Source: Patescibacteria group bacterium (lineage in GTDB: Bacteria; Patescibacteriota; Minisyncoccia; UBA6257; GWB1-50-10). Taken from it: a stretch of 64,000 nt of DNA. The notes under the pieces are model-generated. The model had not been told where the DNA came from. It did not search any database and saw only the letters and a program-made list of their open reading frames with translations. The stretch covers positions 1 through 64,000 of the forward strand of contig JBBTQX010000008.1 of the NCBI GenBank assembly GCA_038065455.1, read 5' to 3'. Shown here piece after piece: positions 43,153 to 43,803 of this stretch. How positions within the stretch are numbered: the first letter of the stretch is position 1; every line of letters starts with the position of its first letter. The position numbers and the translations under genes were made by a program.

Positions 43153-43803
43153 TTAAATCTCAGACGGCAAAATGCGGGCGCTTACCGTCGTTTCCAGATT
43201 CACGGTGTTCTCGGGCGCCGATTCGGTCCGGGAACCTACATTCATAAAAATAGATGCTCTCCAGGGCGCTAAAATATAGGTTCGGGGAAATAGATAAAAA
43301 CTTAATTTGTTTACTTTCACTCCGGAAGCGGTAAGAAGCGAAAACGGGGACGTTCCTTCGGTTCTTTTAACGCCAAAATTCGCCTGGTCCCACTCATAAA
43401 TGACTGACACGGGCGTCGCTCCGCGAATCCGGGTGAATTTAAGCGAATCGCCGAAGCCGCCAGCGAGATCAGGACTGCACGTTCCCAAACTGCAGATTTC
43501 AAAACCATAGCCGAGTCTGATTTCACGCATTATTTGTTCCAAAGCCAAACTTGAGTTGCTTTGGATTGCCATCATGTCGGTCACGAGCCGCTGGGTCCGG
43601 AAAGAACGGATAAAAATGCCAGAGGCCACCGTCACCACGCTGAGAAATACGGCAATGGCGACAATAAGCTCGACAAGTGTGAATCCCGTTAGAGATCGCG
43701 CCCGCGCGCTTGCGCGCGCCCCGAAGGGGCCTGCGGGGCGGGCTATCTCTAACGGGATGAACCCGCTATTTTTGGAATTTGGATATTTTATAAAATGTTT
43801 CAT
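43153..43803 (-). CDS. Type IV minor pilin (PilW-like) with 26-aa insert in leader
   Basis: GFTLVELIVA. Confidence 0.85.
   Translation of the reverse strand: MKHFIKYPNSKNSGFIPLEIARPAGPFGARASARARSLTGFTLVELIVAIAVFLSVVTVASGIFIRSFRTQRLVTDMMAIQSNSSLALEQIMREIRLGYGFEICSLGTCSPDLAGGFGDSLKFTRIRGATPVSVIYEWDQANFGVKRTEGTSPFSLLTASGVKVNKLSFYLFPRTYILAPWRASIFMNVGSRTESAPENTVNLETTVSARILPSEI
43684..43757. repeat. In-frame CCCGTTAGAG-family element flanked by TGAA direct repeat
   Basis: TCCCGTTAGAGAT...ATCTCTAACGGGA; 74+4=78 nt. Confidence 0.85.

Follow-up and report, generated by a model that had tools for sequence, protein, structure and literature searches.

A palindromic element at the cleavage codons of a patescibacterial minor prepilin, probably a nonautonomous member of a GIY-YIG-encoding family of small transposable elements

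A pilus gene cluster of a patescibacterial genome contains a minor prepilin-like gene with a palindromic insert placed exactly at the codons of the predicted cleavage site. This raises the question of what the insert is, how it came to this position and why the gene still has the appearance of a processable prepilin. The cluster lies on the minus strand of the window (the whole stretch of 64,000 nucleotides that was analysed) and comprises, besides the prepilin, pilM, pilO, pilB, pilT, pilC, two pilins and pilD. Two of its genes are of main interest:

43153..43803, minus strand: minor prepilin-like gene with the insert, an ORF of 216 aa with N_methyl / IV_pilin_GFxxxE at residues 40-60
44948..45850, minus strand: prepilin peptidase of PilD type, operon-mate of the prepilin (Pfam A24_N_bact 9e-27, Peptidase_A24 1e-11)

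Read directly from the sequence, the insert is an element of 74 bp situated between two copies of TGAA. In plus-strand order, the locus is composed of the following parts:

43680..43683, plus strand: target-site duplication copy TGAA; TTCA on the coding strand, i.e. Phe41 and the first base of Thr42 at the regenerated site
43684..43757, plus strand: noncoding, MITE-like element of 74 bp from a short, G+C-rich subfamily, recognised by its boundaries, arms, fold and sibling copies
43684..43696, plus strand: left terminal inverted repeat, the first bases of the element, TCCCGTTAGAGAT; in the minus-strand coding sequence ...S-L-T-G directly before the cleavage site
43697..43744, plus strand: G+C-rich core (87.5% G+C) with two internal hairpins
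43745..43757, plus strand: right terminal inverted repeat, the last bases of the element, ATCTCTAACGGGA; on the coding strand (I)-P-L-E directly after the original G-F
43758..43761, plus strand: target-site duplication copy TGAA; on the coding strand Phe15 and the first base of Ile16

According to the repeat search, the terminal inverted repeats can be taken as 13 nt with perfect pairing or as 17 nt with 94% complementarity (arms 43683-43699 and 43742-43758), and two internal palindromes are present between them. The predicted fold of the stretch as single-stranded DNA has -32.4 kcal/mol (z = -5.2), a value equalled by none of 200 shuffles. The 48-nt core contains 87.5% G+C compared with 45.3% for the whole window, in agreement with a preliminary description of the locus, which had called the interior G+C-rich with its own hairpins. 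The closest siblings of the element in the same genome (C4:39413-39484 and C4:18655-18722) share 83% column identity with it in alignment. No known RNA family matches positions 43500-43950 at E up to 1.

The element and one copy of the duplication amount to 78 nt and add exactly 26 codons, just as had been described before; the insert is in frame and has no stop codon in the prepilin frame. The ORF with the insert reads ...NSGF-IPLE...RSLTG-FTLVELIV, and removal of the insert gives ...NSG-FTLVE. The right end of the inserted unit together with the duplication re-encodes L-T-G|F-T, which bears out the earlier statement that the repeat end supplies SLTG before FTLVE. Residues 1-14 of the protein represent the original leader, residues 16-40 derive from the insert and the mature part begins with Phe41. 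Both pilin profiles, Pfam N_methyl (1e-4) and NCBIfam IV_pilin_GFxxxE TIGR02532 (6e-4, over its cut-off), match residues 40-60 and so fall on the second, regenerated G-F site, where a G|F-x-x-x-E motif with a hydrophobic helix behind it has the form of a class III signal peptide. The insert is therefore predicted to lie in the leader removed by PilD, as had been proposed. A pseudo-site, G-F-I-P-L-E (Phe15, Ile16), was formed at the upstream junction and is now internal; with its Gly(-1) and Glu(+5) it, too, might be cleaved.

Twenty-one complete copies of the inverted-repeat family are present in the 654-kb genome that contains the window (G000), and the noncoding ones number 19 and measure 29-141 bp. 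Identical 4-bp flanks were found at 15 of the 21 copies, with TGAA at ten of these 15; the duplications, all of 4 bp, are TGAA, TGAG, TGGA, TCAA, TAAA, TTCA and TTTA. The family thus shares with MITEs terminal inverted repeats, a target duplication of fixed length and variable sequence, and small noncoding units in many copies. Its commonest site is the start codon, and only one of the 21 copies lies in a pilin gene. Sixteen copies measure 111-280 bp, and 14 of them sit exactly on the start codon of a host gene (counting ATGs that open an ORF of 156 aa or more), which is rebuilt by the last A of the element and the duplication. The host ATG then opens a short frame whose end lies 7 nt ahead of the rebuilt ATG; in the other arrangement the nuclease ORF described below ends in an ATGA overlap. 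These insertions suggest a general way in which parasites of very small genomes could insert without polar effects.

Two copies represent the longest form of the family:

28386..28665, plus strand: full-length family member of 280 bp, enclosing only an 87-aa GIY-YIG ORF (28405-28668), in an ATGA stop/start overlap
C2:35626-35905: second 280-bp copy, 279/280 identical to the first

The flanks of the two copies are unrelated, and their identity begins and ends exactly at the repeats. The gene behind the first copy is presumably recR-like, to judge by its first residues. Copies of about 120 bp have 15 nt in common with the 280-bp form at the left end and about 24 nt at the right. The 87-aa protein is a single-domain nuclease (Pfam GIY-YIG over residues 1-69, E = 5e-16), and its best solved relatives are UPF0213 proteins (PDB 1zg2, 7e-12; 1ywl, 1e-4). 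A search of 41 related genomes detected its gene in 35, and at 9 of 29 loci of relatives it is enclosed by the same repeats in elements of 277-280 bp, mostly with ATGAA/TGAA flanks; at some of these relatives' loci (L129), compensatory changes occur in both arms. More distant homologues of the nuclease are enclosed by other long repeats. Neither the coding full-length member nor the frequent use of start codons figured in the preliminary description.

We propose that the 74-bp palindrome is a nonautonomous member (MITE) of a family of small transposable elements, and we regard the account as a whole, i.e. a MITE of a GIY-YIG-coding hairpin family, a regenerated cleavage site and an insertion of low cost, as probable. 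The family would be defined by inverted repeats of the (T/C)CCCGTTAGA type at its ends and by a 4-bp target duplication of the form T-N-N-A (TGAA/TTCA in G000), and its 277-280-bp full-length form would encode only a single-domain GIY-YIG nuclease, similar to UPF0213 and Ssn proteins. Most probably, this nuclease is able to recognise the paired ends as a hairpin and to cut beside them. The target in the minor prepilin would have been the TTCA of GGG-TTC-ACA, the codons of Gly(-1)-Phe(+1)-Thr(+2). Because the element ends with ...CTAACGGGA and TTCA is duplicated, the downstream junction would again read L-T-G|F-T-L-V-E, and the precursor would possess a leader of 40 residues instead of 14. We expect the operon's own prepilin peptidase to act on the regenerated G|F, the one nearer to the membrane; the mature pilin would then be unchanged, so that the insertion would cost little. 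The same logic would apply to start codons, where the last A of the element and TGAA would rebuild ATGAA. We infer that the nuclease is the mobilising enzyme, that a strand-joining mechanism completes the insertion, that the insert is translated and that PilD cleaves at the second site.

Insertions at the same codons recur in other lineages. When 185,579 species genomes were scanned at DNA level for the end of the element followed by F-T-L-[IV]-E codons, 68 matches came to light, distributed over 49 assemblies from Planctomycetota, Patescibacteria, Omnitrophota and other groups. A search for the upstream partner repeat, recommended as a check in the preliminary description, located it at 61 of the 68 matches, in a well-kept state at 58 (no more than 3 of 13 positions mismatched, located up to 420 nt upstream) and degenerate at three. 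No recognisable partner arm is present at four matches (L015, L017, L035, L067), and three others (L056, L068, L072) resemble the 125-nt type of paralogues, but without the left arm. Among the 58 matches with a well-kept arm, 43 have identical 4-bp flanks. Insertions have been selected for frame, with 51 of the 58 in frame (binomial P = 9e-18 against 1/3, the copies not being independent) and 49 read through with an open frame; six out-of-frame copies bring an internal ATG instead. In the sample of the phylum, the pattern occurs in 6 of 401 genomes (5/400 without G000, reversed control 0); these five genomes show one clear partner arm, one degenerate and three with none within 400 nt. The same three codons have thus been struck again and again from Patescibacteria to Planctomycetota, and type IV pilin leaders in these groups therefore cannot be naively read from gene models.

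Such recurrence may mean that prepilin cleavage codons are actively preferred, through recognition of more than 4 bp or through accessible DNA, and that the leader hairpin has a use; we consider this a serious, if tentative, possibility. Control of pilin translation or of DNA uptake, comparable to Ssn/NTS in Neisseria, may be such a use. In favour of preference, 22 prepilin genes of the Phycisphaerae genome G041 carry the element (its 90 canonical G-F-T-L-[IV]-E-L-L-V motifs follow a stricter pattern and hence are no clean denominator for the 22), and 6 of its 33 small elements with exact arms lie in pilins, the others showing many different 4-bp duplications. Judged by their sequences, the pilin elements of G041 are repeated insertions, because they are 94-98% identical inside pilin paralogues that are only about 67% identical. 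Flank identity is not raised accordingly, which also speaks for preference: it amounts to 18.1, 24.7, 23.6 and 20.1 of 30 in the seven pairs with elements at least 84% identical and to 16.6, 23.6, 22.3 and 19.3 of 30 in the 71 other pairs. Within one orthologue, moreover, the same codons were struck in two genera, as a different family member occupies them in G024. The target consensus of G041 is GG|YNNR|CC, its logo reaches past the duplication and GGN-TTY-ACN fits it; together with the TGAA flanks of G000, this agrees with the earlier suggestion that G-F codons in pilin genes match the target preference. Occupancy in G041 looks higher than expected from the 4-bp preference alone, by a rough estimate made without computation. 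At the non-pilin loci of this genome, identical 4-bp flanks were found in 15 of 26 cases.

Two other origins of the G041 elements were considered and rejected. Co-duplication of element and gene is ruled out by near-identical elements in diverged paralogues with flank identity at the paralogue baseline, and gene conversion between the paralogues is ruled out by the same flank identity.

Several observations speak against active preference. No sequence preference is visible downstream, and mimicry of an extended target was rejected, as the use of Phe, Thr and Leu codons is alike in 64 hit and 39 non-hit pilin motifs of the same loci (for example Leu TTA, 21/64 versus 17/39; Phe TTT, 46/64 versus 28/39). 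The single pilin copy among the 21 of G000 and the rarity of the pattern in the other phylum genomes point in the same direction. A census of all elements gave pilin shares of 2/8 in G043, 1/8 in G044 and 2/4 in G045, which are biased, since these genomes were chosen for having matches.

A still broader hypothesis would see cross-phylum hairpin transposons driven by Ssn-like GIY-YIG single-strand nucleases, whose ends re-encode the interrupted signal and which actively home to prepilin cleavage codons; it is possible, and we find it doubtful. A + TGAA would then give the start codon and ...ACGGG(A/G) + TTYA would give Gly(-1)|Phe(+1)-Thr, with class III signal peptides as a dedicated landing pad. 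If true, this would be, as far as known, the first prokaryotic DNA transposon family based on a GIY-YIG nuclease, and its insertion strategy, "scarless at the protein level", would be new.

Mobilization could instead depend on something else, such as a trans-acting transposase or recombination by the host at hairpins; the GIY-YIG nuclease would then only be carried along, or would have been domesticated together with the repeats, as has been proposed for Ssn/NTS. GIY-YIG enzymes are nucleases and none is known to join strands; the nuclease alone would therefore not be a complete transposase. Furthermore, none of 17 GIY-YIG loci in five genomes of other phyla has these repeats on both sides; one GIY-YIG gene there has a MITE directly behind it, one MITE relic keeps 23 nuclease codons and one gene lies beside a tRNA. 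Work on Ssn likewise shows, in the main text of PMC11893778, that single strands are cleaved and that transformation is affected, but shows no transposition. We nevertheless consider a different mobiliser unlikely: the nuclease ORF is the sole coding content of the full-length element, with its last four codons inside the right repeat and its stop codon inside the duplication, the repeat sequence co-varies with nuclease lineage, and no larger element with the same repeats was seen in G000 within 1500 bp pairing distance.

Under the preferred account of a nuclease-driven hairpin family, several known systems invite comparison. Like REP / BIME elements with their RAYTs (IS200/IS605-like), the present family unites dispersed hairpin repeats and a small nuclease gene bracketed by them, and recognition of single-strand hairpins is the likely principle in both. 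RAYTs belong to the HUH enzymes, act through covalent intermediates and generate no target duplication, whereas the enzyme here is of GIY-YIG type and the matching, variable 4-bp flanks represent a true duplication. Type IVb prepilins have a leader of tens of residues that ends in Gly and is removed by an A24 prepilin peptidase, and long leaders are thus processable. In type IVb the long leader is a family trait, whereas in G000 it appears to have been made by a transposon and is absent from the orthologue of the same genus.

Rickettsia palindromic elements (RPEs), originally reported by Ogata et al. in 2000, were compared with the present family by their behaviour. Like RPEs, ERIC and BOX, the present elements are small palindromic repeats lying in frame inside genes, keep the frame open and add a peptide segment (PMC10969869). 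RPEs are about 150 bp long and lie within mature parts of unrelated enzymes, and they are not described as rebuilding a start codon or processing site; the accessible text of that review contains no mention of pilin, signal peptide, start codon or GIY-YIG. Ssn / NTS (SRM) systems consist of single-domain GIY-YIG ssDNA nucleases flanked by hairpin repeats, an architecture likened by its authors to an insertion sequence; according to the main text of Chenal et al. 2025 (PMC11893778), each NTS is a hairpin of roughly 30 nt, 2% of them lie inside genes, and cd10448 (CDD) is the clade that defines Ssn. The nuclease of G000 is likewise a protein of about 90 aa (87 aa, with UPF0213 protein 1zg2 as best solved relative) containing the GIY-YIG domain only, and the inverted repeats enclosing its gene occur in many further copies throughout the genome and follow the nuclease lineage. 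In contrast to NTS, which are separate hairpins, each arm in G000 finds its partner on the other side of the gene; duplications of 4 bp flank the copies, whose sites include start codons and the codons of prepilin cleavage. Target duplication, a MITE series, an insertion-site logic and Patescibacteria are absent from the main text of PMC11893778, supplementary tables lying outside this statement. The literature searched, which included the accessible text of PMC11893778, PMC10969869 and 10.64898/2026.09.22.753630 and did not extend to subscription journals and supplements, yielded no account of MITEs in Patescibacteria or in the leader of any prepilin, and none of GIY-YIG/hairpin elements that duplicate their target.

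The family described here is mobile, and it supplies the evidence for mobility that Ssn/hairpin systems lacked: its boundaries are sharp, copies at unrelated sites are nearly identical, the 4-bp duplications are genuine, a series of deletions leads from the coding element to hairpins of only 29 bp, and one orthologue has the unoccupied site. Work with ssDNA could also profit from a small nuclease whose hairpin is defined and whose cut position is predicted.

The empty site was revealed by comparison with orthologues, which had been proposed earlier as a check. Synteny in the order pilD - pilin - pilin - prepilin with insert - small pilin-like gene - ligA is conserved at all 11 loci of relatives examined, and only G000 and G024 among the loci examined carry an element of this repeat type at the orthologous site. 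In G004, of the same genus and with an 82% identical orthologue, the sequence reads MKILNKKYFNKQ-G-FTLVE, leaving a clean 78-nt gap and a single TTCA. The insertion might have inactivated the gene or altered its product, with the leader left unprocessed or cut at the first G-F and the gene decaying. The predicted leader of 40 residues, compared with 12-29 in most orthologues, would accord with this, as would the resemblance of G-F-I-P-L-E at the upstream junction to the motif; minor pilins are often dispensable. We find such decay improbable, as the ORF is intact and dN/dS over 175 codons of the mature part is 0.12 against the G004 orthologue, a figure averaging a lineage with and a lineage without the insert. 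A strain variant of the host species differs by 11 synonymous and 4 non-synonymous changes, none of them inside the element, and strain variants recovered in two other studies carry the insert without any change. An open frame at 49 of the 58 comparable insertions elsewhere would also be unexpected for decaying genes. Pilin leaders had been suggested to form a neutral safe haven; the frame statistics and the low dN/dS uphold the safe haven, and "neutral" may understate the case, given the roughly estimated occupancy in G041. Our locus thus offers a concrete case of a mobile element that survives in a gene because the peptide it adds is, by prediction, cut off after translation.

That the 78 nt are a chimera of the assembly, produced by a repeat which several contigs have in common, is hardly conceivable. 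In its favour, sequencing depth at the two arms is several-fold above that of the flanks, owing to further copies of the arms in the metagenome. Against it, single contigs of two other studies (X8 record 13, X10 record 1) cross flanks, both arms and core with the same sequence, the frame is exact and the same architecture exists at 61 other loci. The insert is neither a product of chance nor an assembly artefact, as follows from the 21 complete family copies in the genome, the clean gap in G004 and the spanning contigs. No insertion polymorphism was seen in the G000 population among Logan contigs, where no contig joins across the element. Contigs in the RNA-library run X15 belong to a G004-like relative with the empty site, not to G000.

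A further in-frame insertion is found elsewhere in the window, inside an HsdS-type gene (Methylase_S match 2e-50):

6168..6199, plus strand: mini-hairpin of 32 bp with the same repeat type, CCCCG ends and TAAA/TAAA flanks, contributing 12 codons in frame

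A discrete element, bounded by inverted repeats and flanked by a 4-bp duplication, has moved into the TTCA of the Gly-Phe-Thr codons of a minor prepilin gene. The features concerned, in window coordinates, are:

43153-43803, minus strand: host prepilin open reading frame, 216 aa (sequence reading)
43680-43683, plus strand: TGAA duplication copy (sequence reading)
43684-43757, plus strand: 74-bp element (sequence reading)
43758-43761, plus strand: second TGAA duplication copy (sequence reading)
44948-45850, minus strand: prepilin peptidase (A24_N_bact 9e-27, Peptidase_A24 1e-11)

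The element starts with TCCCGTTAGAGAT, and the exact reverse complement of TCCCGTTAGAGAT forms its other end. A repeat search lengthens these arms to 17 nt (94%) and detects two more palindromes within the 74 bp. The 48-nt core is 87.5% G+C, compared with 45.3% for the window, and the stretch folds as single-stranded DNA with -32.4 kcal/mol (z = -5.2), a value matched by 0 of 200 shuffles. No Rfam family matches at the element. Together with one TGAA it amounts to 78 nt, or 26 codons. The preliminary description was correct in each statement on this segment (74 bp, TGAA duplication, 26 codons, second G-F), and its interpretation, an insert within the removed leader that regenerates the cleavage motif, is supported. 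The palindrome is almost certainly a MITE. Contigs of public sequencing runs from two other studies cover the whole insert, which is therefore real and fixed in the species.

Downstream of the prepilin peptidase come four small pilin-like genes, of which the host gene is the third. The type IV pilus cluster to which they belong lies on the minus strand and is complete (PilM, PilO, PilB-type and PilT-type ATPases, PilC, two pilins and PilD). Gene order (pilD - pilin - pilin - host gene - small pilin-like gene - ligA) is retained in all 11 relatives' loci, so the host genes there are orthologues. In G004, a relative from the same genus that is 82% identical over the mature pilin part, the orthologue reads M-K-I-L-N-K-K-Y-F-N-K-Q-G-F-T-L-V-E and the site is a single GGA-TTC-ACC. 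Alignment of the two DNA sequences leaves a single clean gap, equal to the element and one duplication copy; read from this alignment, the 78 nt are an insertion relative to the G004 orthologue. Besides this empty site, nine other orthologues of the 11 also lack such an element. G024 represents another genus within the same family; its orthologue is occupied at these codons by a different member, which is partly decayed (R-F -> V-P-L-E...K-S-L-A-G -> F-T-L-I-E; insert 83 nt, flanks TTTG/TTTA). A contig from an RNA library (run X15) over window positions 43644-43687 represents the G004-like empty-site allele, with its loose end running into the G004 leader; an insert-free relative therefore co-occurs in the aquifer samples.

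The host gene looks maintained, as judged from substitutions. Between the mature parts of the window gene and its G004 orthologue, dN/dS is 0.12 over 175 codons. Record 13 of the public run X8 shows 20 differences from the window over 801 nt, and a 3-nt deletion at 43347. Among the 18 of the 20 differences that are listed, none falls in the element and 15 fall in the host frame (11 synonymous, four non-synonymous).

The host product reads M-K-H-F-I-K-Y-P-N-S-K-N-S-G-F -> I-P-L-E...R-S-L-T-G -> F-T-L-V-E-L-I-V. The element end, ...CTAACGGGA, together with the duplicated TTCA re-encodes L-T-G|F-T, and the frame is kept; Pfam N_methyl and NCBIfam IV_pilin_GFxxxE fall on residues 40-60, that is, on the second G-F. 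Because the insert, read directly, contains no in-frame ATG, GTG or TTG, the ribosome would start at the old ATG and produce a 40-residue leader. The operon's A24 peptidase would then cut the regenerated G|F beside the hydrophobic helix, leaving the mature pilin unchanged. We consider such correct processing likely.

The window's genome (654 kb) contains 21 complete elements with the same ends:

280 bp: two copies
111-141 bp: 14 copies
G+C-rich short forms of 68, 72 and 74 bp: three copies, 83% alike
mini-hairpins of 32 and 42 bp: two copies

Identical 4-bp flanks enclose 15 of the 21. They differ among copies (TGAA, TGAG, TGGA, TCAA, TAAA, TTCA, TTTA) and are the same on both sides of one copy, which is the signature of true target duplication. 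The two 280-bp copies are identical at 279 of 280 positions, their flanks are unrelated, and the identity is bounded exactly by the repeats. Their sole content is an 87-aa open reading frame with a GIY-YIG domain (Pfam 5e-16), whose nearest solved relative is the UPF0213 protein 1zg2 (7e-12); the frame ends with S-L-T-G, four codons inside the right repeat, and takes its stop codon, TGA, from the duplication. One full-length copy (window 28386-28665) occupies the ATGA in which the stop of an upstream gene overlaps the start of a gene that we take, from its first residues, to be recR-like, and the duplication preserves both the upstream stop and the downstream start. The copies of about 120 bp match the ends of the 280-bp form over about 15 nt on the left and 24 nt on the right; because of these ends common with the coding form, they look like its internal-deletion derivatives. 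Side-by-side or nested elements, with an element end immediately after a duplication, occur at C2:26191-26389 of the same genome and at C167:7619-7718 of the Phycisphaerae genome G041, and suggest insertion into or beside existing copies.

We lean towards the GIY-YIG nuclease as the mobilizer, by analogy. Related Ssn enzymes nick single-stranded DNA next to NTS hairpins, according to the available text of PMC11893778, and we infer that the protein would likewise recognize a hairpin, formed on single-stranded DNA by the paired arms, and nick beside it. Host functions would complete strand joining.

Start codons are a second site of insertion. Read in nuclease-gene orientation, 12 of 15 copies have A immediately before the duplication and 10 of 15 have T-G-A-A as the duplication itself, giving ATGAA. 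In 14 of the 16 long copies (111-280 bp), the last A of the element and the TG of the duplication form the start codon of a frame of 156-1207 aa (for example C6:11634-11756 and C4:68602-68724); one further long copy opens a 38-aa frame, presumably ribosomal protein L36 from its sequence, and one lies off any start codon. The original ATG is still found at the left flank in 11 copies. In seven of these it opens a frame of 39-46 codons (M-N-P-V-R-D...S-C-L) that passes through the whole element and terminates inside the right repeat, 7 nt ahead of the rebuilt ATG, which looks like a built-in termination-reinitiation device. In one, a nuclease-bearing copy, the host ATG shares its frame with the nuclease ORF, and the end of that ORF overlaps the host gene through ATGA; in the other three the frame ends early. 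By sequence reading, the repeats are open in two frames (P-L-E...S-L-T-G and P-V-R...S-N-G), the third being closed by TAG/TAA. Two short members lie within other genes:

window 6168-6199: 32-bp mini-hairpin with TAAA/TAAA flanks in an HsdS-type gene (5620-6846), where it separates the two specificity domains and adds 12 in-frame codons (N-P-V-R-D-S-K-H-S-N-G-V)
C4:18655-18722 (L154/L156): 68-bp G+C-rich sibling with unequal flanks (CCTG/TGAA), in frame within a class I aminoacyl-tRNA synthetase gene, in its anticodon-binding part

K-S-E-I-R-N-P-K peptides recur in this synthetase as well and may be the trace of another repeat family.

The pilin site recurs far beyond this genome. One genome per species (185,579 species) was scanned for the right end of the element joined to F-T-L-[IV]-E codons; as pilin context was required, the resulting 68 stretches in 49 assemblies count cases and do not measure preference. 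By record titles, 37 belong to Planctomycetota, 16 to Patescibacteria lineages, six to Omnitrophota, two each to Auribacterota and Aegiribacteria, and five are unclassified or otherwise labelled. A partner arm (at most 3 mismatches of 13) lies within 420 nt upstream in 58 of the 68, and a degenerate arm in three more; seven matches have no usable partner, four without any and three having lost the left arm. Flanks are identical in 43 of the 58 (32 TTTA, 11 TTCA) and agree at three of four positions in nine more. In 51 of the 58 the combined length of element and duplication is divisible by three, with open read-through in 49 (...G-F-[I/T]-P-L-E...[S/F]-L-T-G|F-T-L-I-E); in six out-of-frame copies an internal ATG begins a new leader. 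The binomial P of 9e-18 for this frame bias is overstated, paralogues and related genomes not being independent. As far as such counts go, they show comparable copies elsewhere to be under frame selection. An even sample of the window's phylum gave the pattern in five of 400 other genomes and in none with the reversed control.

G041 (5.7 Mb), like the other census genomes picked for having matches, has the element in 22 prepilin genes, against 90 canonical G-F-T-L-[IV]-E-L-L-V motifs, a rough occupancy only, as the motif is stricter than the element-bearing set; a second Planctomycete has five such genes and 74 motifs. Co-duplication of element and pilin gene is ruled out in G041: elements are 94-98% identical in paralogues about 67% identical over their first 300 nt, with the drop at the element boundaries. 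Gene conversion carrying the flanks is likewise ruled out, since the flanks of similar-element pairs show no greater likeness than is seen between paralogues whose elements are unrelated. With both excluded, the comparison indicates repeated insertion.

Elsewhere in G041, 15 of 26 non-pilin loci with small elements have identical 4-bp flanks (CTCA, CAAG, TCAA, TGAA, TGTA, TGAG, TTGA, CTTA, CAAA, CTCG). The pooled logo is GG|YNNR|CC: the duplication opens with T or C in 30 of 30, and G occupies -1 in 17 of 30 and -2 in 16 of 30. GGN-TTY-ACN fits it at four fixed positions, or six if the codons are GGG and ACC, which bears out the earlier suggestion that G-F codons match the target preference. 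So loose a target should, at a rough uncomputed estimate, be present thousands of times per genome, yet pilin genes hold six of the 33 small exact-arm copies; their share therefore also needs strong survival of insertions, or extra targeting. No codon bias indicative of a longer recognition sequence was found in element-bearing pilin motifs.

REP/RAYT systems, which use HUH enzymes and to our knowledge make no duplication, are analogous in principle to this family. The nearest parallel is Ssn/NTS, in which the gene of a single-domain GIY-YIG nuclease lies between repeats that are present all over the genome; the available text of PMC11893778 notes its insertion-sequence-like architecture, reports NTS repeats as seldom intragenic, and gives no duplication, MITE series or site logic, all three of which are seen here. 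Palindromes inserted in frame have been described in Rickettsia (RPEs) and for a few further MITEs, according to a 2024 review of prokaryotic MITEs (PMC10969869), in the available text of which pilins, signal peptides, start codons and GIY-YIG are unmentioned. Our finding opens onto a wider, apparently undescribed pattern. What we take to be new is a combination: ends that rebuild the host signal they interrupt, start codons and prepilin cleavage codons as two favoured sites, and recurrence at the latter over at least five named phyla. A literature search outside subscription journals and supplementary tables found no published description of it.

The nuclease gene is present in 35 of 41 related genomes and is enclosed by the same repeats in nine of 29 relatives' loci, in elements of 277-280 bp with mostly ATGAA/TGAA flanks. 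The nuclease and its repeats evolve together, since at L129 both arms carry corresponding changes and homologues at a greater distance have long inverted repeats of a quite different kind around them, in several loci with CCC at the start and TGAA again after them. In the Omnitrophota genome G045 (L110, C80:4776-4909), a 136-bp MITE keeps the first 23 nuclease codons, 65% identical to those of the window's genome, and is by this likeness a relic of a coding element outside Patescibacteria. At L103 (G041, C114:1-2144), a GIY-YIG homologue is flanked by a tRNA-like sequence (with GTT where the anticodon is expected, judged by eye) and a partial copy of it, not by the hairpin repeats, which suggests a different insertion habit of that lineage. 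The leaders of the host prepilin gene may collect other repeat families too: at L007 (G013, another genus, about 1430-1500) the leader has a small palindrome of another kind, which encodes I-P-A-C-R-Q-A-R-Q and is framed by direct repeats of about 11 nt, and the leaders of the L006 and L011 orthologues are 27-29 residues long.
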